Assembly: GCA_965209235.1 (NCBI GenBank)
Contig: OZ242382.1
Location: 1,263,010 to 1,327,009, forward strand
Direction of reading: 5' to 3'
DNA from: Gammaproteobacteria bacterium
GTDB lineage: Bacteria > Pseudomonadota > Gammaproteobacteria > G965209235
DNA: 64,000 nt
Every line of letters starts with the position of its first letter. Position 1 is the first letter of the stretch. Positions 9,409-52,512 of this stretch are shown here, piece after piece. The position numbers and the translations under genes are program-made. Under the pieces are notes generated by a model. That model worked only from the letters and a program-made list of their open reading frames with translations. It did no database searches and was not told the origin of the DNA.

Positions 9409-9577
9409 CGGCAGGTAATTCATGTGAACGCCTTCGATGCAAGGCTTCAGACGGACTGCCATTGCTGGTTGTCAAAAAGGTCTCTTAAACCTCGCGCGCT
9501 CGGAGAATCTATAATTCATCACAGATTGGACGGGCGCTTGTTTGCCTGTCAGGACCCAGCCCCTCGAGGGAGTAACA

Positions 9578-10150
9578 ATGCAATCACTTAAGCCATGGGT
9601 TGTCTGGGCAGTATCTCCGCTGATTCTTGCGGGATGTTGTTCACGCGGCGTCATAGACGAGCCAGATGAAATGGATGTCTTTATGGCTGAAGCCGTGCCG
9701 ATCGAAGAAGTGGGCTCTGTTGCCAGTGCGCCTGCTGTTGCCAGCTCGACGCAGTCTGTTGCGAGCGAAGCAGTGCAGCCGGAGCGTCCGCGCGCCGCAC
9801 CGCCTGTTGCCACAGCAGAAAACCGTTCGTTGGTGTACTTCGACTTCGACAAGGCTTCCTTGAAACCTGAAGCTGTCGCATCGTTGCGTCGTATTGCACG
9901 TCAGTTGCGTCGCAACTCCCGATCCACGGTGGTTGTGCAAGGTCACGCCGACAGTCGCGGAACGCGCGAATACAACCTCGCGTTGGGCGAGCGTCGTGCG
10001 AAAGCCGTTGCTGCCTACTTGATTGATGCAGGTGTTCCGTCACGGCGTATCCGCACGACAAGCTTCGGTGAAGAGCGTCTTGCATCGCAAGGAAGCAGCG
10101 AAGAGTCGCATGCCCTCAACCGTCGGTCAGAGATCATCGTTCGACGTTGA
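9578..10150 (+). CDS. Second Pal-like OmpA-family lipoprotein
   Basis: Lipobox ILAGC with GAGGGAG 7 nt upstream of the ATG. The OmpA domain (VYFDFDKASLKPEA, GHADSRGTREYNLALGERR, NRRSEI) is clearly paralogous to the pal C-terminus. Confidence 0.8.
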   Translation: MQSLKPWVVWAVSPLILAGCCSRGVIDEPDEMDVFMAEAVPIEEVGSVASAPAVASSTQSVASEAVQPERPRAAPPVATAENRSLVYFDFDKASLKPEAVASLRRIARQLRRNSRSTVVVQGHADSRGTREYNLALGERRAKAVAAYLIDAGVPSRRIRTTSFGEERLASQGSSEESHALNRRSEIIVRR

Positions 10151-10210
10151 TGGCTAACGGCACGTAGGTTAGAGATTTTGGAAATGCCGGGGTGCCGAGG
10201 CGCCCCACGC

Positions 10211-10819
10211 ATGCTGATGCAACAAGCCTCACGTCTCGCATGGATGACGATGGGACTGGGTGTGTTGTTGTCGCCGGCTTACGCCCAAGACAATTCGCCT
10301 CAGGCCCTAGAACAACGCATTCGTTCGTTAGAGCAAATGGTGCAGGAGCAGCAGCAGCGGGTTGATACGCTCACCCGGACTGTAGCTGCGCTACGGCGCC
10401 GCGTCGCGACGGATGAGCTCCAAGTGGCGCCCAGTCGGGACGCTAGCGAAGAGGACGTATACCAAGCTGGCGTGAAGCTGTTGGATGAAAGACAGTTTGA
10501 AGATGCCGTCGATCGGTTTCAAACGTTACTCATTCGGTTTCCAACCGGCCAACGGGCGGCTGAAGCACATTTTTGGTTAGGTGAGATCTACTTTTTGCAA
10601 GATCTCCGACAAGAAGCGAAACAAGAGTTTGAGCTGATTGTCACGATGTATGAAAATCACTGGAGAACACCAACGGCTCATTTCAAGCTTGGCGAGATTG
10701 CACGAGTGAGTGCAGACTACGTCACGGCGCGTGAACAGTATGGAACAGTGATTAGCCGTTACCCCGATAGTCCCGCCGCGGGGCTCGCATCTTTAGCGAT
10801 GCGGTCACTCACAGAGTAG
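10211..10819 (+). CDS. cpoB: Cell division coordinator CpoB/YbgF (coiled coil plus TPR)
   Basis: Signal peptide ending AYAQD, coiled-coil LEQRIRSLEQMVQEQQQRVDTL, C-terminal TPR-like repeats, and position after pal. Start could be 10178-10217. Confidence 0.8.
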   Translation: MLMQQASRLAWMTMGLGVLLSPAYAQDNSPQALEQRIRSLEQMVQEQQQRVDTLTRTVAALRRRVATDELQVAPSRDASEEDVYQAGVKLLDERQFEDAVDRFQTLLIRFPTGQRAAEAHFWLGEIYFLQDLRQEAKQEFELIVTMYENHWRTPTAHFKLGEIARVSADYVTAREQYGTVISRYPDSPAAGLASLAMRSLTE

Positions 10820-10843
10820 GGTGGCGGTAAAATCGTCAGACAT

Positions 10844-10919
10844 GGGTCGTTAGCTCAGTTGGTAGAGCAGTTGGCTTTTAACCAATTGGTCACTGGTTCG
10901 AGCCCAGTACGACCCACCA
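10844..10919 (+). tRNA. tRNA-Lys (anticodon UUU), CCA encoded
   Basis: Manual cloverleaf: acceptor GGGTCGT/ACGACCC, D arm GCTC/GAGC, anticodon loop CTTTTAA, T arm ACTGG-TTCGAGC-CCAGT. It sits in the same cpoB-tRNA-Lys-nadA position as in E. coli. Confidence 0.95.
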
Positions 10920-10963
10920 TTTCGCGTTGCTAAGGAATTCCGCCAGCGGAACTAAACGAGCTA

Positions 10964-12025
10964 ATGTCGCAAACCTTACGCATACCACGGGCCTTATGGC
11001 GTGAGCATCGCGCTCGGCCGCCTGGTGACGTCTTTCAAGATCACGGCGATTTTCGCACCATGCGTGATCAGATTGCAAGTGAGCTACAGCGCCAGAACGC
11101 CTGCCTCGTTGCGCACTACTACGTGTCTGCTGACATTCAGGAAGTGGCGCTTGCGACCGGTGGGTGCGTCTCTGACTCGCTAGAAATGGCGCGTTTCGGA
11201 CGTGATAGCGACGCAACCACGTTGATTGTGGCCGGTGTGCGCTTCATGGGCGAGACCGCGAAGATTCTCAGTCCGGACAAGAGCGTATTGATCGTGTCTG
11301 ATCGCGCGGAGTGCTCGCTGGATCTCGGATGTCCGGCCGATCAGTTGGCTGAACTCAAAAAAGAACACCCAAACCATGTGCTCGTGGCTTATGCGAATAC
11401 ATCCGCCCGTGTTAAGGCGATGAGCGACTGGATCGTCACATCACGCAATGCGCGTGATATCTGCGAGAGAATTCTCCAAAGCGGGCAACAGTTGATTTTC
11501 GCCCCCGATAAGAACCTTGGTCAATGGGTGCGGGAAGAACTGGCAGCAGACGACGAAGACTTTATCTTGTGGGATGGTGCGTGCGTCGTGCACGAGGAAT
11601 TTCAAGGGGAAGGTGTTATTCGGCTGAAACACCAGTACCCTGAAGCGCCGATGTTGGCGCACCCAGAGTGTCCACAAAACGTGCTTGAGCACGCTGACGT
11701 GGTGGGTTCAACAACGGCGCTTATTCAAGCAGCGAAGTCTCGCACGGAAAAAGTGATGATTGTCGCGACTGATCGCGGGATCCTGCATGAGATGAGACGC
11801 GAAGCTCCAGACAAACGCTTTTTGGTTGCACCAGCGGCATCAGCCGGCGCGCCCTGTCGCGCCTGCGCGCGCTGCCCATGGATGGGACTCAACACGCTAA
11901 ATAGCGTTCTAGAAGTCCTACAAAACCCTTCAGAGACGCACGAGATCGCTATCGACCCGGATGTTAGCGTCCAGGCGGCGCGTCCGCTTGAGCGGATGCT
12001 GGCGTTCTCGAAAGCGCGCCAGTAG
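10964..12025 (+). CDS. nadA: Quinolinate synthase NadA
   Basis: NACLVAHYY...IQEVA...GGCVSDSLEMARFG aligns with E. coli NadA, and the C-terminal RPLERMLAF also matches. Confidence 0.9.
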   Translation: MSQTLRIPRALWREHRARPPGDVFQDHGDFRTMRDQIASELQRQNACLVAHYYVSADIQEVALATGGCVSDSLEMARFGRDSDATTLIVAGVRFMGETAKILSPDKSVLIVSDRAECSLDLGCPADQLAELKKEHPNHVLVAYANTSARVKAMSDWIVTSRNARDICERILQSGQQLIFAPDKNLGQWVREELAADDEDFILWDGACVVHEEFQGEGVIRLKHQYPEAPMLAHPECPQNVLEHADVVGSTTALIQAAKSRTEKVMIVATDRGILHEMRREAPDKRFLVAPAASAGAPCRACARCPWMGLNTLNSVLEVLQNPSETHEIAIDPDVSVQAARPLERMLAFSKARQ

Positions 12026-39098: not shown

Positions 39099-41653
39099 TG
39101 GCACGCCGCACGCCGCATTCCCGTCGCTCGGCTGGCGAGAAAACCAGCGTCAGCCGCATGGCACTTGGTTTCGCGATCTTCTGTTTGGGCGGTGCCGTTA
39201 TGACGCTTGCTGCAGGGTATTTACGCCTTGCCAGAGACATTCCACCTATCGTGGGATTGCTCGAAGTCAAGTTGGAAGAACCCATGAGGGTGTACACCAA
39301 AGATCGTGAGTTTATCGGTCAGTTTGGGACGATTAAAAGGACGCCGCGGGCCTCGGAAGATGTTCCTCTGCGGTTGCGTCAAGCGATCTTGGCCGCTGAA
39401 GATCACAACTTTTATAACCACGAAGGGGTGAGCTACGTGGGCCTGGCGCGGGCGGTCATGGAGTTGCTGCGATACCGCACGATCCGCAGCGGCGGTGGAA
39501 CGATCACCATGCAGGTTGCGCGTAACTATTTGTTGTCGCGCGAGCAGACGTTTGTGCGCAAGTTTCGTGAGATCATTCTTGCGTATCGTATTGACGAAGC
39601 GTACACCAAAGATGAGGTGATGTCGCTGTACCTGAATAACATCTTTTTGGGAAATCGGGCGTATGGTGTAGTGGCCGGGGCCCAAGTGCTGTACGGTAAG
39701 ACACTTGAAGAACTCACACTTGACGAGATCGCGGTGCTGGCCGCCTTGCCCAAAGCCCCGTCGTCGCTCAACCCGGTTCGTTATCCAGCGCGCGCGCAAG
39801 TTCGACGGGACTGGGTCTTGCGTCGCATGAGAGGGCTGGGCTACATCTCAAACGAAGACTACGAGTTGGCGGTGGCTGCGCCTGTCACCAGCCGTGTCTT
39901 TGGGTACGCAGCAGAGATTGATGCCAGTCATGCGGCAGAGATCATTCGCCGGCGGATGCTGCAGCTGTTTGGCCGGGCGGCGTATACCGAAGGGTATCAG
40001 GTGATTACCACTATTGATTCACAAGCCCAATCGGCAGCCGTACACGCGCTGAGATCAGGCTTAGAGAACTACGACCGCCGTCATGGATGGCGGTTACCTG
40101 CGCAGCGCAGTGATTTGTTTGTGCCTCGGTTGCGACGTGCCATTGAGGCCGGCGACTACCGTCGGCTATACGACCACGCCGAATACAACGAAGAGGGAGA
40201 ACTACTCGATGATGGCGGCCCTTTTGCTGTTCTCTTCGAAGGCTTGCTGGATGAAGTGTCGTACGGCGACACCATTCCCGCGTTGGTGCTGAAAGTAGAA
40301 GGTCCCACGGCCCAGCTTGCGGCCCAGAATGAAGGGATCGTTGACGTTGAATGGGGCACGCACTTCAACTGGATGCGACAGCATCTGGGATTGGATCGGC
40401 TAGGCGCTCGGCCGCGCTCGTTCCTCGACGTGATTAAGCCAGGTCAAGTTATCTACTTGCGGGCGAACGGCGACACTTACGACATCGTTCAATCGCCTAA
40501 CGTTGAGGGCGCGTTGGTGGCGCTGGATCCCACCGATGGTGCCATCGTGGCCATGGTGGGGGGATATGACGCGAAACGCAGCGAATTCAATCGCGCGACG
40601 CAAGCGAAGCCGCTCGTGGGATCAAGCATCAAGCCATTTCTGTATTCTGAAGCGGTGGATCAGTGTTACTCACCCGCCACCGTCATCAACGAATCCGCCA
40701 TCGTGATTGATGATGACACGTTGGAGGAACGTTGGCAGCCTGCCAATTCCGACGGTCGGTTTTATGGCGAAACGTCGTTGCGAGACGCCATTGTGTTCTC
40801 GCGCAACCTCGTCTCCATCAAACTCCTGCAAGAGCTCTCAATTGATTCCGTGATTGACCATTTAAAGCAATTCGGGTTCATTGAAAGCGATATGCCTCGC
40901 GATCTGTCGCTGTCACTGGGGACAGCACAGATCTCTCCGCTGGATCTCGCGCGTGGATTTTCTGTCTTCGCGAACAATGGCATACTCGTACAACCGCAAT
41001 TGATTTGGGAGGTGATTGACCGAACCGGCGCGCGGGTCCCTGGTGTCGGGTTGGCCCATGTGATCGAAACGCTTGCACGTCCCGTCACGCCCGCCCCTGT
41101 TGTTGAAACGGTGGGCTGGGAAGAGATTACGGGTGCCAAGCGGGTGATCTCGCAGGCGGAATCATGGATCATTGCCGACATGATGAAGGACGCTGCCACG
41201 CGCGGAACAGGACGCGGCACGCGAGTCTTGAAACGAGACGACATTGCTGGGAAAACAGGGACATCAAACGATGCTGACAGTACGTGGTTTTCGGGGTTTA
41301 CCAAACGTTTAGCTGCCAGCGTGTGGGTGGGATATGACTCTCCTCAAACGCTGGGTAGCCGAGAGTTTGGGAGCACAACGGCGCTGCCTATCTGGATTGA
41401 ATTTGCCGAGAGTGCGCTGCAGATTTCCGATGCGCGAGAGTCAGCAGGCATCGTGCCGCTGACGGACAGCGAACAGATTCCTGAAGGAATCGCGCTCATT
41501 CGAGTGGACCCCGAAACCGGGTTGCCTGCTGTTGCAGGGAGTGACTCGAATAGCTTTGAGTACGGACTCAATCGGTGTCTTGCTGATATCTCCACCGACC
41601 CAACAGGTCGGGAAATCGAGGACGTGAAGATCGACCTCGAGGAGATCTTTTAG
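39098..41653 (+). CDS. mrcA: Penicillin-binding protein 1A (bifunctional transglycosylase/transpeptidase)
   Basis: GT51 motifs EDHNFYNHEGV and GGGTITMQVARN. Transpeptidase motifs SSIKPF, SRN and KTGTSND. Confidence 0.95.
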   Translation: MARRTPHSRRSAGEKTSVSRMALGFAIFCLGGAVMTLAAGYLRLARDIPPIVGLLEVKLEEPMRVYTKDREFIGQFGTIKRTPRASEDVPLRLRQAILAAEDHNFYNHEGVSYVGLARAVMELLRYRTIRSGGGTITMQVARNYLLSREQTFVRKFREIILAYRIDEAYTKDEVMSLYLNNIFLGNRAYGVVAGAQVLYGKTLEELTLDEIAVLAALPKAPSSLNPVRYPARAQVRRDWVLRRMRGLGYISNEDYELAVAAPVTSRVFGYAAEIDASHAAEIIRRRMLQLFGRAAYTEGYQVITTIDSQAQSAAVHALRSGLENYDRRHGWRLPAQRSDLFVPRLRRAIEAGDYRRLYDHAEYNEEGELLDDGGPFAVLFEGLLDEVSYGDTIPALVLKVEGPTAQLAAQNEGIVDVEWGTHFNWMRQHLGLDRLGARPRSFLDVIKPGQVIYLRANGDTYDIVQSPNVEGALVALDPTDGAIVAMVGGYDAKRSEFNRATQAKPLVGSSIKPFLYSEAVDQCYSPATVINESAIVIDDDTLEERWQPANSDGRFYGETSLRDAIVFSRNLVSIKLLQELSIDSVIDHLKQFGFIESDMPRDLSLSLGTAQISPLDLARGFSVFANNGILVQPQLIWEVIDRTGARVPGVGLAHVIETLARPVTPAPVVETVGWEEITGAKRVISQAESWIIADMMKDAATRGTGRGTRVLKRDDIAGKTGTSNDADSTWFSGFTKRLAASVWVGYDSPQTLGSREFGSTTALPIWIEFAESALQISDARESAGIVPLTDSEQIPEGIALIRVDPETGLPAVAGSDSNSFEYGLNRCLADISTDPTGREIEDVKIDLEEIF

Positions 41654-43071
41654 CTCGTTCCCGTGACGATTGACACATCGATGGCAGGCGCGCACAGCTT
41701 GATCGCTTCGGCAAACGTTTGACGAATGCGGGCTAACGCTGCCTCATCCTTGCCTTCGAAACACAGCGAGATGGCCGGCGAGCTGTTGGACATGCGGATC
41801 AACCCAAACCCATCGGCATAGTCGATGCGTGTGCCGTCTAGCTGCGTCACGACGGCGCTTTCAGGAAGCGCGTCGAGTAATTCACGGCCCGTCTTTTCGA
41901 CGATCTCTTGTTTCATGCTGTCATCAATATCAATGATGACTTCGCCGCTTGTCACGCCGGTTGGAAACTCTGACATGATGTCATCCAGTGAGCGGCCATC
42001 TTCAGCCAGAGCTTCAAGGACCCGTCCACCGGCATAGATCGCGTCATCTGCGTTGATCCAGCGGTCTGGGAAACTCAGGTGCCCGCTCACTTCACCCGCT
42101 GCCACGGCATTACCGCGCGCGATCGCGAGCTTGATGAATGAGTGTCCGGTGCGCACCAGTTCCGCCGTGCCGCCGGCGGCTTCCAGCGTGCCGCGCATGT
42201 GCGCGGTGGACTTGACGTCGTACAACACGCGTCCTTTGGTATCGCGCAGTGCAATCGATGCTAACCACATGAAGAGTTGATCGGCAGGAATGTAGCGTCC
42301 GCTAGAGGTTACGACGCCGACGCGATCGCCATCTCCATCGAACGCAATACCGAGATCTGCTCCGGTTTCAAGCACACGCGCTTGCAGATCCACGAGGTTT
42401 TCCGGCTTCGCGGGATCCGGATGGTGGTTTGGGAACCGTCCGTCGAGGTCGCAGTACAGCTCATCGACGTCGACGCCCAGAGACCGGTACAACGAGGGGG
42501 CAAATGCGCCAGCTACGGCGTTTCCCGCGTCTACAACGATCTTCAACCCCGAGGCAGGACGTAAGGCTTGTTTCAGCGCTGCCATCCAGGATGTTTCCAC
42601 AGATGCGTCTTCGGAAATGGGCGTTCCCACCTGACAATCCCCGTCTTTTTCACCCAGTGCGATGACGTCTTGCCCGAAGTCCTGCAGTTCCTCAGCCGTC
42701 AGAGGCAACCCATCAATGATGAACTTCAGGCCATTGAATTGACCGGGGTTGTGGCTAGCCGTCACAACGACGCCGCATCGTATGTCAGGATCGAAACGAC
42801 CACTGGCTGCGTAGTACACCATCGGGGAAGTCGTCAGTCCCGCATTCGTGATCTCGGTGACACCGGCATGCTGCAGCCCCGTCTGGAGGGCCTCGACGAG
42901 TGCGGGGCTCGTCAAGCGCGCGTCGCGCCCAATGACGATTTTGTGGTGCCCTGTTTTGAGCATGCGGGCGCCAAGCACTTGACCGATCAGTCTCATGACT
43001 GAGTCGTTGAGCTGTGAAGGAACGACACCACGAATGTCGTAGGCGCGAAAAATTGAGTGCTCGATTAACAC
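41650..43071 (-). CDS. algC: Phosphomannomutase/phosphoglucomutase (AlgC-like)
   Basis: IFRAYDIRG, the active-site loop TASHNP, and the metal loop FDGDGDR. Confidence 0.9.
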   Translation of the reverse strand: MLIEHSIFRAYDIRGVVPSQLNDSVMRLIGQVLGARMLKTGHHKIVIGRDARLTSPALVEALQTGLQHAGVTEITNAGLTTSPMVYYAASGRFDPDIRCGVVVTASHNPGQFNGLKFIIDGLPLTAEELQDFGQDVIALGEKDGDCQVGTPISEDASVETSWMAALKQALRPASGLKIVVDAGNAVAGAFAPSLYRSLGVDVDELYCDLDGRFPNHHPDPAKPENLVDLQARVLETGADLGIAFDGDGDRVGVVTSSGRYIPADQLFMWLASIALRDTKGRVLYDVKSTAHMRGTLEAAGGTAELVRTGHSFIKLAIARGNAVAAGEVSGHLSFPDRWINADDAIYAGGRVLEALAEDGRSLDDIMSEFPTGVTSGEVIIDIDDSMKQEIVEKTGRELLDALPESAVVTQLDGTRIDYADGFGLIRMSNSSPAISLCFEGKDEAALARIRQTFAEAIKLCAPAIDVSIVTGTS

Positions 43072-43193
43072 GAAAAATCGTCAAGAGTGCGTTGGAGATT
43101 CTAGGTTTTCTGCGATGGAAGGGTGTTTCTGATGGTGTCAAAGCTCACGTGTCGCCAATCTATAATTACGTTCATCAACAGGTTGAACAACTC

Positions 43194-44189
43194 ATGTTTG
43201 ATGACATTCAAGCCGTATGGTTCAATGGGCGGATGATTCCGGTAAAGGATGCTGTCGTCCCCATGTGGACACATGGCTTGCACTACGGCACGTCCGTTTT
43301 TGAAGGCATACGAAGTTGGAGTCAAGAGGACGGAAGTGTTGCCATCTTTCGACTACGAGACCACTGCCAGCGTCTGTCGCGATCCGCCAAGATCGCGTGT
43401 ATCCCGATGGATTACAGCGCTGAGCAGTGGGAAGAAGCCATTTTGCAGACTGTCGAAGTGAATAACCTCACCAACGCATATATCAGGCCACTTGCGGCGT
43501 ACGGGTGCAATTCGCTGGCATTGAATGCCGAACATGTGGATCATTTTGCACTCGTGGTGGCGTGGAATTGGGGCTTGATGCTTAATGACGATGCGGTTGC
43601 AAGAGGGCTACAACTCAAAACCGTCGGCATCCGACGAACAGGGACCTCTGACAACATGGCAGGAGCCAAAGTGGGCGGGTTGTACGTGAAGGCCAATGTA
43701 GCGCTTCATGAAGCTCGGGCTGCAGGAGCTGATGAGGCACTTATCCTTGACGAATTTGGCTTTGTTTCCGAAACGTCTGGGCAGAATTTGTTTGCGCTCT
43801 TTCAAACTCCCACCGGAGAACTTGAGCTCGTCACCCCGTCGCCGACTTCGTGCTTGCGGGGAATTACGCGGTCGACGATCATGACGCTTGCCAAAGAGAT
43901 TGGCCTTCCAGTCCGCGAGACGATGTTCACGCCGCCGGTGCTGTACGACGCTTGTGAAGTATTTATCACAGGCACGGCAACGGGCCTCGTTGGTGTCGCG
44001 GCGGTGGATGGACATGAAATTCGCGGCGTGAGCGACCGATCGTCCCTGCCAGCAGCGATTCGGGACGCTGCATCTGTGACGTCGTACTTCCGGCGCCGGT
44101 ACTTTGATATCTGCACCGGGCGCACGGATCACCGCAATTGGCTCTTTCCCGTTGGGACAAAATCTGTGTCGACGCCCCATCTCGCATAG
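43194..44189 (+). CDS. ilvE: Branched-chain amino acid aminotransferase (fold type IV)
   Basis: WFNGRMIPVKDAVVPMWTHGLHYGTSVFEGIR, ETSGQNLF and GITR motifs. The ORF upstream of Met-61 overlaps algC. Confidence 0.85.
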   Translation: MFDDIQAVWFNGRMIPVKDAVVPMWTHGLHYGTSVFEGIRSWSQEDGSVAIFRLRDHCQRLSRSAKIACIPMDYSAEQWEEAILQTVEVNNLTNAYIRPLAAYGCNSLALNAEHVDHFALVVAWNWGLMLNDDAVARGLQLKTVGIRRTGTSDNMAGAKVGGLYVKANVALHEARAAGADEALILDEFGFVSETSGQNLFALFQTPTGELELVTPSPTSCLRGITRSTIMTLAKEIGLPVRETMFTPPVLYDACEVFITGTATGLVGVAAVDGHEIRGVSDRSSLPAAIRDAASVTSYFRRRYFDICTGRTDHRNWLFPVGTKSVSTPHLA

Positions 44190-44199
44190 CTGACTGAAT

Positions 44200-45465
44200 T
44201 TGTCCCGACCCTTACGTATTGCGCTGACTACTTACCGAGGAAACCCTCGATCGGGCGGTCAAGGCGTATTTGTTGCTCGGATCTCGCGGGAGATCACGCG
44301 GCTAGGGCATCAGGTGTCCGTGTTATCGGGGCCGCCGTATCCCGAGCTGGATGAGGGAGTCGAACTGATTCGTATTCCGGGATTGCAACTCTATGACTCC
44401 ATTCCGGTCGAATGGGGGCAGGCAGCGTCACGCGTCCGTACCTTGGCGGATGCCGATGAACTGTGGTGTCGCGTGATGGGCCGCTTCATGGAGATGCGCA
44501 GCTTCGGTAAACGCGTGCTCAGCATGATTCGCTCGCGAAAAGAAGAGACTTCCTGGGATGTCATTCACGACAACCAGTCGATTGCGCCATGGTTGATTGC
44601 CGCGCAAGACCTCATGCCGACGGTCAGCACGATTCACCACCCCGTGGTGATTGATCGTGATATTCAGGTTGCGCAAGCCAAGTCTGCGCTAGATGCGATG
44701 GCAACGCGTCGCTGGTATTCGTTTGTCAACATGCAGCGGGCAGTCGCGCCGCGCCTTCGGGCGGTCGTTTGTCCAACGCCGTCAGCCTTGCGTGATTGTG
44801 TGACCCATCTTGGCGTGCGAGAACATCGTTCTAGTGTCGCCGCCAATGGGGTGGATCAAGAGGTGTTTTATGCCACTGACGATCACCGAGCCCCGTTACG
44901 AATCGTGACGTGTGCCAGCGCGATGCATGCGATGAAAGGACTGAACGTGTTGGTGCGCGCGATGGCGCTCGTCGTCGGGCGAGATGTTGATGTGACGTTG
45001 GATGTGGTTGGTGGTCAACCGAGTGGTGAAATCAGACGACTGATTCGCGACTATGGCCTGAGTGGTCGTATCGCCTTTCACAGTCCTCCAGAGGCGTCCG
45101 GTGTGGCGGCGCTGTATCGGCGCGCGACCATTGGCATTGTGCCATCACTCTATGAAGGATTTGGGCTGCCAGCGCTGGAAATGATGGCCTGCGGGACGCC
45201 CGTTATTGCCTCACGAGCGGGTGGCTTAACCGACGTCTGTGAAGGGGCTGCTGTTTTAGTGCCGCCCGGAGATGCAACGGCTCTCTCTGTCTCCATCCGA
45301 GACTTGATTGGTTCCCAGTCATTACGCACGAAACTGCAGAAGGCTGGTTTCCAGCGCATGGAGTCTTACACCTGGGCACAAACGGCGCGGGACTATTTGA
45401 CGGAATACGATCGAGTGATCATGAGCTGGCTCGAACAAAGAGGGCACACTAGCTCGACCGCCTGA
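44200..45465 (+). CDS. GT4-family glycosyltransferase (TTG start)
   Basis: N-terminal GGQGVFV motif. C-terminal EX7E motif in PSLYEGFGLPALEMMACGTPVIAS. Confidence 0.85.
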   Translation: MSRPLRIALTTYRGNPRSGGQGVFVARISREITRLGHQVSVLSGPPYPELDEGVELIRIPGLQLYDSIPVEWGQAASRVRTLADADELWCRVMGRFMEMRSFGKRVLSMIRSRKEETSWDVIHDNQSIAPWLIAAQDLMPTVSTIHHPVVIDRDIQVAQAKSALDAMATRRWYSFVNMQRAVAPRLRAVVCPTPSALRDCVTHLGVREHRSSVAANGVDQEVFYATDDHRAPLRIVTCASAMHAMKGLNVLVRAMALVVGRDVDVTLDVVGGQPSGEIRRLIRDYGLSGRIAFHSPPEASGVAALYRRATIGIVPSLYEGFGLPALEMMACGTPVIASRAGGLTDVCEGAAVLVPPGDATALSVSIRDLIGSQSLRTKLQKAGFQRMESYTWAQTARDYLTEYDRVIMSWLEQRGHTSSTA

Positions 45466-46178
45466 TGAATACGATTGATCTCGACCGTCTTGAGTTGTCA
45501 GACGGCCACGTCGTCCTCGACGCTGGGTGTGGAGAGGGGCGGCATGTCCGCGCGCTACGTCAGCACGGCGACCTTGAGGCGGTGGGTGTTGATATGCGGA
45601 TTGATCGCCTCAAACAGATACGTGGTGAGGATGGCGCCTCGGACAAAGTGCGGCTCTACGCCGCAGATATCACCCGGCTTCCTTTCCAAAGCGGTTCGTT
45701 TGACGCGGTGATTTGCAGCGAGGTGTTTGAGCACATTCCGTTGTGGCAACGTGCGGCACATGAACTGACACGAGTGCTGCGCGGCGGTGGTGTGTTTGCG
45801 GTCAGCGTGCCGGCCCGCATGCCCGAAATGTTGTGCTGGGCGTTGTCCAAGAAATATCGAACCACTCCTGGTGGGCATGTGCGTATCTTTCGGGAAGATG
45901 AACTGAAAGCTGGCGTGCAGGCTGCGGGGATGATTTATCTCGGTAAGCATTACGCCCACGCTTTGCATGTCCCATATTGGTGGTTGCGCTGCCTGTTCGA
46001 TAAGGATCCAGACCACCATCCGGTTGTGGGATGGTATCGCAGGCGCTTAGAGGCCGAAATGTTTGGCGGTGCACGCATGCTCACTCGTCTAGACCGTTGG
46101 GCGGCGCCTCATGCCGGCAAGAGTGTGGTGATGTACTTCAGAAAGCCAGCGGACTCGCAAACACTACTTGCGTCTTAG
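45465..46178 (+). CDS. Class I SAM-dependent methyltransferase
   Basis: VLDAGCGEGRH (motif I) and FDAVICSEVFEHIP. TGATG overlap with the GT4 gene. Confidence 0.85.
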   Translation: MNTIDLDRLELSDGHVVLDAGCGEGRHVRALRQHGDLEAVGVDMRIDRLKQIRGEDGASDKVRLYAADITRLPFQSGSFDAVICSEVFEHIPLWQRAAHELTRVLRGGGVFAVSVPARMPEMLCWALSKKYRTTPGGHVRIFREDELKAGVQAAGMIYLGKHYAHALHVPYWWLRCLFDKDPDHHPVVGWYRRRLEAEMFGGARMLTRLDRWAAPHAGKSVVMYFRKPADSQTLLAS

Positions 46179-47178
46179 CGCTTCAGTGCACCGTTTAGCC
46201 GAAACGGCGAGCTGGCTCGCAACACATCAGCTCCGCAACGGATTCATCCCGTGGTATCCGGGTGGTCGCGGCGACATGTGGAATCACCTAGAGTGCGTGA
46301 TGGCGCTGGCGTCTTATGGCCATGGGCCGCAGGCGGTGCGTGGACTCGCGTTTGCGTCGCGCACGCAACGTGACAACGGCTCATGGCCTCTCGAATGGCT
46401 TGGCGATGGCACGGAAGTGGTCGGCGGTGCATCGCATCATGCCGCTTACTTTGCAGTTGCGCTTCACCACGTCGCTGCTGCGCTGGGTGATCACGATCTC
46501 GCGGGTCACTACTTGCCTGTGGCGCGCAAGGGGCTGGACTATGCGCTGTCTCTTCAGCGTCCCGACGGTGCAATGAACTGGGCCAGCGTTGGCGAGGCCA
46601 TATGGGACGTTCCGTTATTGATTGGCAATGCCTCGGTTAGTCTGGGTTTGGCGGTCGGTCACGTTGCCGAGCGCGCAGTGTCACCGAGAGATACGCCACG
46701 ATGCCAACGCTACGCGGCGGCGCGTGGCCGTCTGTGCGAGGCTCTGAATGATCGGAGTGGGTTTGACGCGGGGCACAGGGACCAAGTGAAGCATGCCATG
46801 CACTGGTATTACCCGTCCTTGTACGCCGGCAAGCCGCTCCCTGTCGAAGGCATCGATCGGTATGTGATGGATGGCTGTGGGTCGCGGTGCGTGGCTGATC
46901 AGCCGTGGGTGACGGCTGCGGAAACCGCTGAACTCACCATGGCACTTCGTCTGACACAAACATCTTCGCCGTGCGCGGATGACTTATTGGCGTGCATTGA
47001 ACAGATGCGCGACGATGATGGTGGCTACTGGACGGGCTGGCAGGTCGCGGCACAAACGCATTGGCCGGTACAAAAAACGACATGGACGGCGGCGGCTGTG
47101 TTGCTGGCTCACGACTTTGCATCAGGGGGGACCACGCGTGATACCTTCCTCATCAGTCGCAGTCAGAGTGATGAGTGA
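46168..47178 (+). CDS. Prenyltransferase/terpenoid-cyclase-like alpha/alpha-toroid protein (QW-type repeats)
   Basis: Repeated Q-x-x-(D/N)G-x-W-like motifs: QLRNGFIPW, QRDNGSWPL, QRPDGAMNW, MRDDDGGYWTGW. Overlaps the upstream methyltransferase stop. Confidence 0.65.
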   Translation: MRLSASVHRLAETASWLATHQLRNGFIPWYPGGRGDMWNHLECVMALASYGHGPQAVRGLAFASRTQRDNGSWPLEWLGDGTEVVGGASHHAAYFAVALHHVAAALGDHDLAGHYLPVARKGLDYALSLQRPDGAMNWASVGEAIWDVPLLIGNASVSLGLAVGHVAERAVSPRDTPRCQRYAAARGRLCEALNDRSGFDAGHRDQVKHAMHWYYPSLYAGKPLPVEGIDRYVMDGCGSRCVADQPWVTAAETAELTMALRLTQTSSPCADDLLACIEQMRDDDGGYWTGWQVAAQTHWPVQKTTWTAAAVLLAHDFASGGTTRDTFLISRSQSDE

Positions 47179-47208
47179 GCGCTGAGAGGCGAACATCCCA
47201 AGAATGGG

Positions 47209-47820
47209 TCAGACGTCGCAGAGGCGTTTGGCCACCTCCAGTGATTGGATGCGATCAACGACGGTCCATCTGTCGGACAACGCGCGTTGCCATGCGAGCC
47301 GAGGCGCTTGACCGCCGTCCTCTTCGCGGTGATAGATATCGTGCATCGCGACTAATCCGTCCGGTTTGACAAGCGGTAACCAAGTTGCGAGATCGTTGGT
47401 GGCAGCGATGGCCGAGTGTCCGCCATCAATGAATAGGAGGTCAATTTGGGGTCGAAGCAAGCCGCCAACGATCAACGACGGACCCACGACGGGAAATACC
47501 ACATCCGTTAACTCAGCGGCAGTGAGCGCGCGTCGTAAGTGTGGCAACGTATCGATGAGGCCAGACGGTTCGTCGAGAAGTTCGGGGTCGTGATACTGTT
47601 CCCCTGGCTGTTGTTCTTCGCTACCTCGGTGGTGATCCACCGTGATCACATAGGCTCCGGCTTCCTTGGCTCCTTGCCCGAGATAGACGGTCGATCGCCC
47701 GCAGTATGATCCGATTTCGACGATGGTTCCGCGGCGTGAAACGCCTTGCGCCAGTTGAAAAAGCGCGCGGCCTTCGGTTTGTGAAAAGAAGCCTTTAAGC
47801 AACTGTGGGTCAAGCGTCAT
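47209..47820 (-). CDS. Class I SAM-dependent methyltransferase (Methyltransf_24 / O-methyltransferase-like)
   Basis: IVEIGSYCGRSTVYL (motif I), DLLFIDGGH, and LVKPDGLVAMHD. Confidence 0.7.
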   Translation of the reverse strand: MTLDPQLLKGFFSQTEGRALFQLAQGVSRRGTIVEIGSYCGRSTVYLGQGAKEAGAYVITVDHHRGSEEQQPGEQYHDPELLDEPSGLIDTLPHLRRALTAAELTDVVFPVVGPSLIVGGLLRPQIDLLFIDGGHSAIAATNDLATWLPLVKPDGLVAMHDIYHREEDGGQAPRLAWQRALSDRWTVVDRIQSLEVAKRLCDV

Positions 47821-48736
47821 AAGGAGGAGGCAGTGACTGCCAGCCGAAGGCCTGAGCGACTTCTTTCAGCCCCGTATCTTTATTCAAGAAATACCGGTTG
47901 TAGTGCATGGACGTCGCTTCGGGATGTTGCGTGAACCAAGGGCGGTAAATCGCAGATAGCCACGCGCCGTAGTCGTCTGCTGTTTTTAGATCCGCGATCT
48001 CTGAGCGGTGAATCTCAAACAGAATGTCATCCCCCATGCGTTGGTAGGCCATCGCAACAATCGGGACGTTCGCTTTGGTCGCCAGGCGGTAGGGCGAATC
48101 CACAACGTCATATGGTCGTGGCGCAAAGGCCAGTGATGCCCGGCGTTTGTCAACATCCCAAGCCTTGATGTCGTTGGCAATGGTCACGACGCGGTGATCG
48201 GCTATCGCTCGCCGCGCTTGCCGCAGATCTTTGAGATAGATGATCTCGCAGACTTGCTCAAACTGACTCCATACCCATGATGTCATGGAACTGCGTCCAC
48301 CCTGCCGAGCCAGTAACACTGGCTTGATGCCAGTCTCTTCGTAGATCACGCGAAAACACGCGAAGCTACAGAGTTGAGCCATGGGCGAATGGATGCCCGT
48401 GAACAGGGCTCCAGCCCGCGCGCACTCGAGAATGCGCCTCTTCGTATCGCCGGTCATGACAACTCTTTTCGTGAGATCAATTCTGTCGCGAAACAAGATC
48501 CCAACCGCATGCAGAATCTGCTCGTTGTAGCGCGCGTGGCACACAAACCGGTACCACAGCGATGCTCCCGGAAACAGGATGCGTCCGTTGCGCAAGGCAA
48601 AGACCCACCGTTTGAAGATCAGCGGGAACGTCAGCACGACCAGCCCCCACCGCATGGCGTGGCCATGCGGGCCTGCCAGTGCAGCAAAAAAGCTCGCGCC
48701 AAACGGGTCGGACGCGGGTGACGACGGTTGTGTCAT
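47810..48736 (-). CDS. Hypothetical protein, possibly an LpxL/HtrB-type (lysophospholipid acyltransferase superfamily) acyltransferase
   Basis: Family-like length, hydrophobic N-terminus and layout: ALFTGIHSPMAQL versus the xxxGxHxGNWE region, and VVTIANDIKA...PYRLATKANVPIVAM versus the DQ...A...LA...PVV region. The HX4D motif reads HX4Q. Weak, by eye only. Confidence 0.35.
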   Translation of the reverse strand: MTQPSSPASDPFGASFFAALAGPHGHAMRWGLVVLTFPLIFKRWVFALRNGRILFPGASLWYRFVCHARYNEQILHAVGILFRDRIDLTKRVVMTGDTKRRILECARAGALFTGIHSPMAQLCSFACFRVIYEETGIKPVLLARQGGRSSMTSWVWSQFEQVCEIIYLKDLRQARRAIADHRVVTIANDIKAWDVDKRRASLAFAPRPYDVVDSPYRLATKANVPIVAMAYQRMGDDILFEIHRSEIADLKTADDYGAWLSAIYRPWFTQHPEATSMHYNRYFLNKDTGLKEVAQAFGWQSLPPPYDA

Positions 48737-48742
48737 CGTGGG

Positions 48743-50344
48743 TTAGGAGTTGGCGTTGATCCCCAGCACATCAAGCATATGCGCTTTGATGCCGTTGTAG
48801 TCCGCCTTGCCGTTATCGGCGCGCAAGGGAAGTTCAGAGGCCATGATGCGTTTGGGGATCTTGTAGTCCGCCAAATGATCACGGCAAAACGTCCTAACAT
48901 CTCCTTCATCGACGGGACCAGCGCTTGGAATGATCGCTGCGATGACAGCGTTGCCAAATCGCGGGTCAGGCACGCCAATCACCAAGCAGTCTTCGATCTG
49001 TGGATGCTGCTTGACAGCTTCTTCCACTTCTTCGGGGTAAATCTTCTCCCCAGCCGAGTTAATGCAAACGCTGCCGCGGCCCACCAGTTGGATCGTGTCC
49101 TGATCAAGCACGCGACACCAGTCGCCAGGGATGGAATACCGGACACCGTCGATGGTTTTAAAGACAGTGGCTGATTTCACCTCGTCTTTGTAGTAGCCGA
49201 GCGGAATCGTCCCAGAGACAGCAATAAATCCGAGGGTGTCACTGCCTGGGTTCACCTCCTTGAAGTCTTCGGTAAAGACCTTGGTGTTTTTCCCCTTGTT
49301 GAAGATCGATGTTTTGGCTTTCCCGTTTTGATCGGTGACTGAGCTTCCAAAGCCAAGCCCTTCAGACGCTCCAAACGTGTCTACCAACATGCAATTGGGG
49401 ACATGTTCCAAGAATGCTTGTTTCACGGGTTCAGACCACATCACACCGGAACTCACCATGCGCTGCAGCTTCGACAAGTCGTACTGAGATCCATTGGCAT
49501 TGAGCTCATCCACAAAGGGCTTGCAAAACGCATCGCCCACGATGGCCATCTCTGTGACGTCATGCCGCGTCACTTCAGCTAGGATGCGGCCAGCGTCAAA
49601 TTTCGCAATTTCCGGCACCACTTCGGCGCCGCCCATCGACATGCATCCCACGGCGGTAAACATGCCTGTTCCATGCATCAATGGGCATGCGGGAAGGTGT
49701 CGGGTCTGAGAATCGGGATCAATGACATCCATTAGTCCGCTCAGTGTCTCTGGTGCAGCGGTTCCCAAAACAGCCGCGGCGCCATTGAGGATGCCTTGAT
49801 GTTCCCAGATGACGCCTTTGGGCATCCCCGTTGTGCCGCCTGTGTAGAGGAACAACTGGTCTTCGGGAGAGCGCTTGATGTCAAGCTTATTGGCGCTTTG
49901 ACCCGCCATCATTGCCTCTAAGGAGTGCGCCCACTGAGGCGGGTCACCTGCGACTTGGACGAGGGTTGTCAGCTTCGGGAGAGAGCCCCGGATGCGGTCA
50001 ACGCGCTCAGCGTACTCCGGCGCAAACAACAGTACCTCGGCATCGGAGTTGTCCAAGATGTACGTGAGTTCTTTCTCGATGTAGCGATAGTTCAAGTTGA
50101 CGTGCGTCAACCTCGCTTTGAAACAGCCAACCATACCTTCGACGTACGCCGGGCAGTTGCGCATATAGAAGCCCACTTTGGCGCGAGGTTGATGCCCTTC
50201 CGCCATCAAAGCTCGAGCGAGCTGGTTGGTGCGATCTGAGAAGGTTTTCCACGTGTCCATCCGGTCGCCGGAGAGAATCGCCGGCCGACTTGGGTTGACG
50301 TGGTCAGCTAATGCATCGAAGATGTCACCGTAATTAAATTTCAT
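48743..50344 (-). CDS. AMP-forming acyl-CoA synthetase / fatty-acid ligase family protein
   Basis: AMP-binding motif LFLYTGGTTGMPKGVIW, with GDW and the C-terminal KxxxR region. The start at 50344 (MKFNYGD) has GGGAG 5 nt upstream; the ORF extends to 50365. Confidence 0.9.
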   Translation of the reverse strand: MKFNYGDIFDALADHVNPSRPAILSGDRMDTWKTFSDRTNQLARALMAEGHQPRAKVGFYMRNCPAYVEGMVGCFKARLTHVNLNYRYIEKELTYILDNSDAEVLLFAPEYAERVDRIRGSLPKLTTLVQVAGDPPQWAHSLEAMMAGQSANKLDIKRSPEDQLFLYTGGTTGMPKGVIWEHQGILNGAAAVLGTAAPETLSGLMDVIDPDSQTRHLPACPLMHGTGMFTAVGCMSMGGAEVVPEIAKFDAGRILAEVTRHDVTEMAIVGDAFCKPFVDELNANGSQYDLSKLQRMVSSGVMWSEPVKQAFLEHVPNCMLVDTFGASEGLGFGSSVTDQNGKAKTSIFNKGKNTKVFTEDFKEVNPGSDTLGFIAVSGTIPLGYYKDEVKSATVFKTIDGVRYSIPGDWCRVLDQDTIQLVGRGSVCINSAGEKIYPEEVEEAVKQHPQIEDCLVIGVPDPRFGNAVIAAIIPSAGPVDEGDVRTFCRDHLADYKIPKRIMASELPLRADNGKADYNGIKAHMLDVLGINANS

Positions 50345-50393
50345 GGCTGCTCCCGTTGAAGGCACGCGAAATCAGTTGCACACAACCAATATC

Positions 50394-51380
50394 GTGCAAC
50401 GTTCTAGTCTAGCACAACAGGGGACCGGCATCCTCTCTGCCATCGCGCTGATCGGACCGACTGCCATCGGGAAGACGGCGATCGCCCACGCACTGGCCGA
50501 AACGTATCCGGTCGAGATTGTGAGCCTCGATAGCGGGATGGTGTACCGTGGCATGGACATCGGAACAGCCAAGCCAACGCACTGCGAAATCCGCGAGTAC
50601 CGCTATCACGGCATCGACATCGCGGATCCATGGCGTCCTTTCAGCGCCGCTGACTATTGGCGGACGGCCGTGACTGCTTGCGCCGCGTGCGTGTCGCGCG
50701 GCCGAATTCCGTTGCTCGTGGGTGGTGCCATGTTTTGGTTACGCGTGGGGCTGGGAGCGGTTGATGACTTGCCGCCGACATCAGAGCCGATCCGCGCGCG
50801 GTGGGCTGGATTCCTGCATCAACACGGCGTCGCGGTTGCCCATCAAGAACTAACGCGTCGAAACCCAAAACGGGCGATGGAGCTGTCGCCGGCAGATCGT
50901 CAGCGCATCCAAAGAGCGCTTGAGTTAGAGGATCTCAAGCTGGCGCCGCCAGCACAGACTGTGACGTTAAACGCTTTGCTATCTCGACTGCATATTCGCG
51001 TGATCGGCGTGATGCCGTGCGATCGCGCGCAACTGCATCGTGCGGTGGAGGCACGGCTCAAGACGATGTGGACGGATGGTCTATTGGACGAAGCCAAGCG
51101 ACTTCATGGGTTGCTCGATCCCGCTGTTCATAGCGCGGCACGGTTAATTGGATATCGCCAGATTTGGCCCCTAATTGACGGTACGTCAACATATGAGCAG
51201 TGGCTGCACACGTCTTTGGTAGCCACGCGCAGATACGTGAAGCATCAACTCACGTGGATGAGGTCGCTAAATGACGCGTCTCTCACGGCGGAGCCGGATG
51301 CGCTGGCTATGATTGGGGCAGAGATTCAACGATTGAGAGACCGCTCTGAGCACATCCGGAACCCCGACAGCATTGACTGA
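50394..51380 (+). CDS. miaA: tRNA dimethylallyltransferase MiaA (start uncertain, ORF opens at 50343)
   Basis: P-loop LIGPTAIGKTAIA, SLDSGMVYRGMDIGTAKPT, and GGAMFW. Confidence 0.9.
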   Translation: MQRSSLAQQGTGILSAIALIGPTAIGKTAIAHALAETYPVEIVSLDSGMVYRGMDIGTAKPTHCEIREYRYHGIDIADPWRPFSAADYWRTAVTACAACVSRGRIPLLVGGAMFWLRVGLGAVDDLPPTSEPIRARWAGFLHQHGVAVAHQELTRRNPKRAMELSPADRQRIQRALELEDLKLAPPAQTVTLNALLSRLHIRVIGVMPCDRAQLHRAVEARLKTMWTDGLLDEAKRLHGLLDPAVHSAARLIGYRQIWPLIDGTSTYEQWLHTSLVATRRYVKHQLTWMRSLNDASLTAEPDALAMIGAEIQRLRDRSEHIRNPDSID

Positions 51381-52512
51381 AACGCCATCCATCATCTTGG
51401 TAACGCAGCGGCAGACTTCGAGTCAGAAGACCAAAGACAAGATTGGTGAACTTGTGGAACTCGCTGTGTCGGCCGGCTACAGAGTGGCCAAAGTCATTGC
51501 CGCACCGCGCCGTCCGCCATCGCCATCAACCTATTTTTCCCGTGGCATCGTGGAACAGATTGATGTGGCGCTGACCGAGTTCACGCACGCGGAACAACCT
51601 ATTGCGGCCGTTCTTGTGGGCGAGGATCTCAGAAGTTCGCAAGAGCGGACGCTCAGCGAAACATTGAAGACGAAGGTTGTGGACCGCACGGGACTGATTC
51701 TCAATGTGTTTTCGAGGCATGCTGGGTCTGAGGAAGGAAAAATCGAGGTCGAGATCGCACGCCTTGACTACGAGGGCTCTCGGTTAGCGGGCCGTTGGAC
51801 ACACCTTGAGCGGCAGCGGGGTGGAATCGGGGTGAGAGGTGGCCCTGGAGAACGGCAGATCGACTTGGACAGGCACGAAATGCGCCGTCGTCGTCAACGG
51901 CTGCAGAAGAAACTGACATCGGTGGCGTCGCAACGAGCTGTGGCACGGCGTTCTCGCAGTGCTGGTCGTCGCCCCGTGGTGGCGCTGGTGGGATACACCA
52001 ATGCGGGGAAATCCAGTCTGTTTCGCTGGTTATCAGCAGCGGATGTTGTCATTGACGATCGTATGTTCGCCACGCTTGATACGCGCATGCGCCGGACATG
52101 GATTCCCGCATTTGGAGAAATCATCCTCGTTGACACCGTGGGATTGATTCAGGACCTCCCCAAAGGCTTGGCTAAGGCGTTTGCTGCAACGTTTGAAGAG
52201 GTAACAGCAGCGGATGTGATCGTGCAAGTCAGTGAGTGCGGTCATCCTCGCGAAGATGACAGGCACCAAGAAACACTGAGTTGGCTTGAGACGCTGCAAT
52301 TGGGGTCGCGTCCGTACGTTTTGGTAAGGTCAAAGGTGGATCTCATTTGCAGTTCGACATCAGCGCGCCGCATGACACGTGGTCACACGGTCTGGGTCTC
52401 AGCCGAGCGCGGTTGGAATAAGGAAGCATTGGGCCGGGCGATAGCAGTTGGATTGCTAGAATCTGGGTATCTGCCATCTGATACGGTTTCATCCGTGTCA
52501 GATGTCGCTTAG
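51373..52512 (+). CDS. hflX: GTPase HflX (TTG start overlapping miaA stop)
   Basis: HflX N-domain (DRTGLILNVFSRHA, GGIGVRGGPGERQIDLDR). G1 GYTNAGKSSLF, G3 DTVG. Confidence 0.9.
   Translation: MTETPSIILVTQRQTSSQKTKDKIGELVELAVSAGYRVAKVIAAPRRPPSPSTYFSRGIVEQIDVALTEFTHAEQPIAAVLVGEDLRSSQERTLSETLKTKVVDRTGLILNVFSRHAGSEEGKIEVEIARLDYEGSRLAGRWTHLERQRGGIGVRGGPGERQIDLDRHEMRRRRQRLQKKLTSVASQRAVARRSRSAGRRPVVALVGYTNAGKSSLFRWLSAADVVIDDRMFATLDTRMRRTWIPAFGEIILVDTVGLIQDLPKGLAKAFAATFEEVTAADVIVQVSECGHPREDDRHQETLSWLETLQLGSRPYVLVRSKVDLICSSTSARRMTRGHTVWVSAERGWNKEALGRAIAVGLLESGYLPSDTVSSVSDVA

Follow-up and report, generated by a model that had tools for sequence, protein, structure and literature searches.

What might a proteobacterium with a small genome produce with a glycosyltransferase, two methyltransferases, an alpha/alpha-toroid protein, an acyltransferase-like protein and an acyl-CoA synthetase, all encoded in one block between ilvE and miaA? 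The question is raised by six open reading frames (ORFs) in a 64,000-nt stretch of bacterial DNA (the window, in which all coordinates without a contig or locus name are counted). The initial annotation had treated the six genes as one unit for an acylated and methylated envelope lipid or glycolipid, and had found no characterised pathway to compare it with. The six ORFs, the two overlaps between them and the HX4Q motif of one product can all be read in the DNA as described. Judged by sequence comparison, four of the genes, manT, meT3, mmpH and the convergent meT1, appear to be a proteobacterial version of the mycobacterial gene cluster for methylmannose polysaccharide (MMP), which is the characterised counterpart that had been missed. 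The fifth gene, orf308, is best regarded as a positional orthologue of lpxL, and the sixth as a separate gene for a general acyl-CoA synthetase (the ligase). For this interpretation of the locus as a whole, we estimate a probability of about 0.78.

Core genes and the MMP pathway

The making and recycling of MMP have been assigned to a cluster of four genes for MeT1, MmpH, the putative 3-O-methyltransferase pMeT3, and the alpha-(1->4)-mannosyltransferase ManT (Maranha et al. 2023, PMC9883506). The cluster has the order manT-pmeT3-mmpH-meT1 and comprises MHAS_04402-04405 in M. hassiacum and MSMEG_6481-6484 in M. smegmatis; the M. hassiacum ManT and MmpH (methylmannose polysaccharide hydrolase) are available as PDB entries 7QSG and 7QSJ (PMC9883506). 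In the window, the complete set of four recurs in this order, again with meT1 in convergent orientation. Domains were assigned with Pfam and NCBIfam profiles, and structure matches were obtained by sequence searches against the PDB, with the following result for the core genes:

manT, 44200..45465, plus strand: GT4 alpha-(1->4)-mannosyltransferase homologue (PDB 7QSG, 3.5e-67)
meT3, 45465..46178, plus strand: class I S-adenosylmethionine-dependent methyltransferase in the pMeT3 slot, putative 3-O-methyltransferase (Pfam Methyltransf_11/25)
mmpH, 46168..47178, plus strand: (alpha/alpha)6-barrel homologue of the MMP endomannosidase (PDB 7QSJ, 1.1e-42)
meT1, 47209..47820, minus strand: Methyltransf_24 1-O-methyltransferase homologue (PDB 6G7D/6G80/6H40, 9.3e-48)

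The match of the GT4 protein to ManT extends over the full length, and is much stronger than the matches to MshA (3e-23) and PimA (about 6e-10). The suggested analogy with the PimA/PatA logic of actinobacteria is thus weak, all the more so since a gene of the LpxL/PatA family neighbours the MMP genes in only 3 of 88 loci. The residues that bind the donor in ManT, G15, K240, E313 and E321 (PMC9883506), align with G22, K246, E319 and E327 of the window protein. The mmpH product matches 7QSJ from residue 10 to residue 322, and retains the catalytic and subsite residues: D36, W38, E252, E255, M211, Y215 and W306 correspond to D47, W49, E262, E265, M215, Y219 and W315 of the M. hassiacum enzyme, in which Glu262 is the catalytic base and Asp47 the candidate for the acid (PMC9883506). 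By virtue of this match, the toroid protein is a predicted glycoside hydrolase, more precisely an endomannosidase; its alpha/alpha-barrel fold had been recognised correctly, and its assignment to the terpenoid-binding type has to be given up. The window MmpH differs from its mycobacterial counterpart in D50N, a change found in 36 of 82 loci, and in N101H (3 of 82) and T163I (1 of 82).

In 80 of 82 loci, the slot that meT3 has between the genes for ManT and MmpH is filled by a homologue of its product with 36-45% identity. The Methyltransf_24 protein matches, in residues 8-198, the PDB entries 6G7D, 6G80 and 6H40, which we take to be MeT1, the MMP 1-O-methyltransferase; its catalytic residues were compared through the 6G7D alignment only. 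Ripoll-Rozada 2019 is a further reference for the mycobacterial MMP cluster.

The plus-strand genes are tightly joined. Between manT and meT3, stop and start codons are fused in TGATG (45463-45467), and meT3 and mmpH overlap by 11 nt (46168-46178), with TTG as the start of mmpH and TAG as the stop of meT3. The TTG start is supported by the homology to 7QSJ, which begins as early as residue 10. The public gene call for mmpH (P0001, 292 aa) starts about 44 residues late, and would lose the catalytic Asp36/Trp38 region. Public labels for the genes of the cluster are "prenyltransferase", "glycosyltransferase family 4" and "methyltransferase"; they are generic, and the MMP pathway is therefore invisible in genome annotations.

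The pathway would depend on a supply of GDP-mannose. The phosphomannomutase/phosphoglucomutase gene (PMM) next to ilvE is the likely source of mannose-1-phosphate. Elsewhere in the genome, at C1:864441-865826, a ManC-like sequence matches GMP_PMI with 310 bits, short of the curated cut-off of 373. With PMM adjacent and a ManC-like gene in the genome, GDP-mannose should be available. The ManC-like match (G000:C1:864441-865826) lies in an open frame of 940 aa, about twice the usual length, which may represent a fusion protein.

By analogy with mycobacteria, GDP-mannose would be made by the adjacent phosphomannomutase and the ManC-like enzyme, and would be used by ManT to lengthen alpha-(1->4) mannosides, on which MeT3 would place 3-O-methyl groups. 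MmpH would cleave finished chains to oligomannosides, and MeT1 would cap these at the reducing-end 1-OH, so that the capped pieces could prime new chains. The predicted product is a polymer of alpha-(1->4)-linked 3-O-methylmannose whose reducing end carries a 1-O-methyl group; it would be a small cytoplasmic glycan with a hydrophobic core. Mycobacterial MMP is intracellular and binds long acyl-CoA chains. The prediction of a dedicated methylated-glycan pathway is borne out by the matches to 7QSG, 7QSJ and 6G7D; the prediction of an envelope lipid or glycolipid is not, because the mycobacterial counterpart is a cytoplasmic polysaccharide.

Distribution and chromosomal context

A scan with the MmpH alignment, carried out on one genome per species, yielded 80 loci. 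In about 75 of them, manT-meT3-mmpH are followed by meT1, mostly in convergent orientation; Mycobacterium loci (L057, L060, L065) are among them. Of 400 other genomes drawn from the class, 8 have an MmpH homologue, and homologues are also present in metagenome-assembled genomes (MAGs) of Alphaproteobacteria and Gammaproteobacteria. In two trees of the four concatenated proteins, a starred split sets the Actinomycetota apart from the proteobacterial rows, all of which fall on the other side together with the window. The window branch has a length of 2.6-3.1 changes per site, and because it is so long, the exact sister of the window is uncertain.

Accounts of MMP assign the polymer to mycobacteria and a few further actinobacteria, and connect it with the unusual fatty-acid metabolism of these organisms (PMC9883506). 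A literature search on MMP returned no report of MMP genes outside the Actinobacteria, and Proteobacteria are not mentioned in PMC9883506. The MMP system is known, and has been characterised biochemically, in mycobacteria; the window contains a Gram-negative copy of it. The two settings differ in that the window cluster belongs to a small-genome Gram-negative proteobacterium with genes for lipopolysaccharide (LPS), is packed between ilvE/PMM and lpxL, has an identity of only about 35-48% to the mycobacterial set, and has a predicted polymer as its product.

The neighbours of the core genes vary among the proteobacterial loci. In a Cellvibrionales MAG (L062:7912-10130), mmpH is followed by genes for a hexapeptide-repeat acyltransferase and for ManC (GDP-mannose pyrophosphorylase/phosphomannose isomerase); no meT1 is present in the 16-kb contig, and the cluster may specify an acetylated variant of the polymer. 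The MMP locus of G017 has a nucleotidyltransferase gene as a neighbour. In alphaproteobacterial MAGs of the Rhodobiaceae/Parvibaculales type, meT1 is flanked by genes for a DUF1329 protein and an MFS_2 sugar transporter. In G204, a genome of the same class as the window (1.7 Mb, 62% GC; L091:11255-13300), a gene for a 681-aa ABC transporter (ABC_tran, with ABC_membrane matched weakly) separates meT3 from manT, and waaA directly adjoins meT1. The differences in accessory neighbours make lineage-specific tailoring or transport possible.

The genome that contains the window is a single contig of 1.47 Mb with 57% GC, and is 89% complete by marker genes. Its closest relatives among the compared genomes belong to the same class, and are related at this level only. 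The window and the rest of the genome carry kdsB, lpxC, lpxB, waaA and mrcA. The gene order in window 9542-12025 is OmpA-family protein, TPR/YfiO-like protein, tRNA-Lys and nadA, with the first two genes being probable pal and cpoB. To the right of the block, miaA is directly followed by hflX-hflK-hflC, all three confirmed. The orders miaA-hflX-hflK-hflC and pal-cpoB-tRNA-Lys-nadA resemble the E. coli arrangement, which fits a gammaproteobacterial origin. The LPS genes and gene orders identify the host as a Gram-negative proteobacterium. At the nucleotide level, identity to named MAG loci reaches only 64-70%.

The initial annotation had taken the block to interrupt otherwise conserved core genes. 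The arrangement is found again in three genomes of the same class, all with the same synteny:

G249: genome of 1.2 Mb, 33% GC in a 20-kb region
G395: genome of 1.3 Mb, 31% GC in a 20-kb region
G040: genome of 0.9 Mb, 34% GC in a 20-kb region

In each of them, PMM on the minus strand, ilvE, manT, meT3 and mmpH on the plus strand and meT1 on the minus strand follow each other as in the window, and miaA lies a few genes further on. The shared arrangement indicates that the block has been inherited at this site, and did not enter it by an insertion between core genes. An origin from an island or mobile element was considered and rejected: the composition is even across the region, and no flanking repeats, tRNA, integrase or other mobile-element genes, or composition shift were found at the block. 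In G395 and G040, a gene that immediately precedes meT1 on its strand, in precisely the slot of orf308, encodes a clear LpxL (PF03279, 2e-49 and 7e-45, respectively) and is coupled to meT1; it is followed by a divergent waaA. In G249, the only LpxL gene, together with waaA, is located 3 kb further on. The window shares the context PMM, ilvE, manT, meT3, mmpH, meT1, (lpxL, waaA), miaA with these genomes, and the lpxL-meT1 coupling with two of them. It differs from all three by its GC content of 57% compared to 31-34%, by an LpxL that is eroded and has the HX4Q motif, and by the location of waaA, which has moved away from the cluster (C1:457015). Three features set the window apart: its extreme divergence, an LpxL that has eroded, and an acyl-CoA synthetase in the place that waaA has in the relatives.

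The ligase and orf308

The neighbours of the core genes in the window are the following:

PMM, 41650..43071, minus strand: phosphomannomutase/phosphoglucomutase with all four PGM_PMM Pfam domains; top NCBIfam match PgmG (5e-102)
ilvE, 43014..44189, plus strand: branched-chain aminotransferase (TIGR01122, 267 bits, cut-off 246)
orf308, 47810..48736, minus strand: 308-aa LpxL-like ORF with HX4Q motif, assigned by synteny and a class LpxL profile
ligase, 48743..50365, minus strand, with ATG 50344 as the likelier start: AMP-forming acyl-CoA synthetase, FadD-like, PRK07798 type (NF005863, 594 bits, cut-off 543)
miaA, 50343..51380, plus strand: right-hand boundary of the block (TIGR00174, 189 bits)

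A spacing of 6 nt separates the ligase gene from orf308, and orf308 overlaps the start of meT1 by 11 nt. On the other side, the end of ilvE and the start of manT are 10 nt apart; ilvE has a housekeeping role, and is probably co-transcribed with manT. Promoter and terminator scans of 42900-51500 returned fewer sites than in shuffled sequence, and were uninformative about operons. In the longest ORF of ilvE, the family match is preceded by about 60 residues (43014-43190 region), and the ORF runs into the divergent PMM start. The longest ligase ORF (GTG 50365) shares 23 nt with the beginning of miaA, and the ATG at 50344 fits the public call of 533 aa. The true starts of both genes are probably internal to the longest ORFs. 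Further to the right, miaA and hflX overlap by 8 nt (50343-52512), with no hfq in between. In G249 (L092:16920-19025), an ORF of 380 aa, probably hflX that has not been annotated as such, begins 45 nt after miaA and likewise leaves no room for hfq. These small genomes may lack hfq or carry it at another location.

The ligase is confirmed as such by the full-length NF005863 match above the curated cut-off, and by the adenylation (ANL) motifs YTGGTTGMPKG (174) and NGK (518). It belongs with the FadD-type synthetases of NF005863 (PRK07798), which some sources label as "3-oxocholest-4-en-26-oate-CoA ligase". Homologues number more than 8000, and the closest of them, with 50-53% identity, are proteins of marine Pseudomonadota such as Henriciella, Hyphomonas and Tepidicaulis. 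Two of the closest homologues are encoded in unrelated contexts without MMP genes, and the position of the window gene next to MMP genes and lpxL is unique among the genomes that were examined. In G395, G017 and G204, the best matches have 37-41% identity and are located elsewhere in the genome. The higher identity to alphaproteobacterial and other Pseudomonadota proteins than to those of the class, in a genome that is otherwise very divergent, suggests that the ligase gene may have been acquired horizontally. Judged by its sequence and context, the ligase appears to be a general FadD-like acyl-CoA synthetase and a lineage-specific neighbour of the cluster, at the place of waaA in the relatives.

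The product of orf308 is difficult to place by standard searches. No homologues came up in a word-based search of 5.8 billion proteins, or when HMMER was run in full against 1.84 billion representatives. There was no Pfam match to the protein at E<=10, and no match to PF03279 anywhere in the genome. Pairwise BLASTP comparisons with the syntenic LpxL proteins were not significant, and an AlphaFold2 model from the single sequence was uninformative (pLDDT 36). Nevertheless, the reading frame is intact, and codon usage is gene-like in this frame only. We took 27 LpxL sequences from the class and built a profile from them. This profile matches orf308 with 14.0 bits in colinear fashion (profile positions 165-256, protein residues 162-254), a score that none of 500 shuffled versions of orf308 reached (maximum 3.0 bits). 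Among 4306 ORFs from the six frames of the genome, orf308 is the top match (E=0.0047); the runner-up (window 10964-12025) is NadA and was dismissed as a chance match. A comparison with hhalign gave the same register with a weak score (P=0.002, probability 13%).

The conserved positions of LpxL are kept in part. N50, H116, R148, D188, F204 and P272 of orf308 fall on conserved LpxL columns, four of them invariant and two conserved in 26 of the 27 proteins. In the HX4Q motif (H116-S-P-M-A-Q121), Q121 takes the place of the acid of HX4(E/D), which is E in 24, D in 2 and G in 1 of the 27 proteins. Two invariant C-terminal aromatics of LpxL (W and F) are also replaced. Compared to the LpxL/LpxM family (PF03279), orf308 thus has a similar length, a hydrophobic stretch near the N-terminus, the N/H/R/D/F/P positions and the genomic slot of the relatives in its favour, and differs by scoring below every Pfam threshold and by the loss of the motif acid and the two aromatics. 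LpxC, LpxB, WaaA and KdsB are encoded in the genome, and no other LpxL-like gene was found in it. We conclude that orf308 is a fast-evolved, eroded positional orthologue of lpxL, and therewith an LPS biosynthesis gene outside the glycan pathway. The earlier guess of an LpxL-type protein agrees with synteny and the class profile, and Pfam is silent about it. The location of orf308 next to meT1 is due to inherited synteny, and not to function.

Alternative readings and implications

The block of six genes does not behave as a unit in other genomes. Across 88 MMP loci, an LpxL-family gene is present at a distance of up to 10 kb in three cases, all of them in the syntenic genomes, where it is paired with waaA. 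An AMP-binding gene is found within 10 kb in three cases as well, and these genes are distant and dissimilar. Neither the ligase nor an LpxL-like gene travels with the other four across these loci. The initial annotation had itself named a lack of co-occurrence as grounds for refutation; by this standard, the four core genes hold together as a unit and the six do not. A pathway of all six genes, in which the ligase would make acyl-CoA and orf308 would use it, in the manner of LpxL or PatA, to acylate the polymer to an acylated methylated mannan or glycolipid, is accordingly improbable. It would gain from the fact that PF03279 also includes the acyl-CoA-dependent mannoside acyltransferase PatA, from the hexapeptide acyltransferase gene directly after mmpH in the Cellvibrionales locus, and from the acetylated MMP that Streptomyces griseus makes (PMC9883506). 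However, no LpxL-family gene or close relative of the ligase is found within 10 kb in 85 of the 88 loci, orf308 is the sole LpxL-like gene in a genome with the rest of the lipid A pathway, and the nearest homologues of the ligase have unrelated contexts. Tight packing is general in this genome of 1.47 Mb, with equally close spacing between ilvE and manT and between miaA and hflX. We regard it as very unlikely that, in this lineage, the LpxL with its HX4Q motif and the acyl-CoA synthetase that has come to lie beside it were recruited into an operon with meT1, where they would acylate the methylmannose polymer from acyl-CoA as PatA does and so give the Gram-negative host an acylated lipoglycan resembling MMP.

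It might also be asked whether the core genes make a methylated mannan for the surface or for export, for instance an LPS-linked or capsular one, and no cytoplasmic MMP. The proximity of the cluster to lpxL and waaA in several genomes of the class would fit this idea, as would the ABC exporter gene between meT3 and manT in G204 and the genes for the MFS_2 sugar transporter and the DUF1329 protein around meT1 in the alphaproteobacterial loci. Yet N-terminal signals and membrane segments are absent from all four core proteins, and no polymerase, flippase or exporter gene is found near the cluster in the window. Moreover, 1-O-methylation of the reducing end by MeT1 and recycling by MmpH imply a free glycan that is not linked to lipid, as in mycobacteria (PMC9883506), so that an exported product has to be considered highly doubtful. 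With regard to orf308, an unrelated orphan gene or a decaying, inactive remnant with coincidental resemblance to LpxL would account for the failure of the HMMER and Pfam searches, the low hhalign probability, the exchange of the catalytic acid for Gln, the lost aromatics, and the uninformative AlphaFold model. We consider this unlikely, because orf308 equals the true LpxL of G395 and G040 in slot, strand, length and coupling to meT1, scores higher with the class profile than any other ORF in the genome and than all shuffled sequences, retains the N, H, R, D, F and P on conserved columns, and has an intact frame with gene-like codon usage.

Several points weigh against the interpretation that we prefer, an MMP cluster next to an eroded lpxL and an unrelated acyl-CoA synthetase gene. 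The window proteins share only 25-45% identity with any relative, and this low identity, together with the very long branch, means that substrate specificity may have drifted. Two of the changes in MmpH, N101H and T163I, are rare substitutions in what has been proposed as a sugar subsite. The sequences themselves show homology, conserved residues, gene order, synteny and the lack of co-occurrence; the chemistry of the product, the activity of each enzyme and the operon structure are predictions from homology. For orf308, the sequence evidence is weak (no Pfam match, 13% in hhalign, not significant in BLASTP), and the case is largely positional. Finally, the ligase gene, orf308 and meT1 are co-directional, and with a gap of 6 nt and an overlap of 11 nt their arrangement is compatible with an operon.

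The eroded LpxL illustrates that "orphan" genes of fast-evolving genomes can be ordinary genes that are recognisable by position alone. As for the core cluster, an intact and conserved copy of the MMP genes has been retained in a fast-evolving Gram-negative genome of 1.47 Mb, and occupies the same chromosomal site in several small genomes of the same class. The retention in small Gram-negative genomes suggests a general role of the polymer, such as the buffering of acyl chains or adaptation to cold, that is independent of the mycobacterial type I fatty acid synthase (FAS-I). The small proteobacterial genomes with MMP genes are simple systems for probing what this polymer does.

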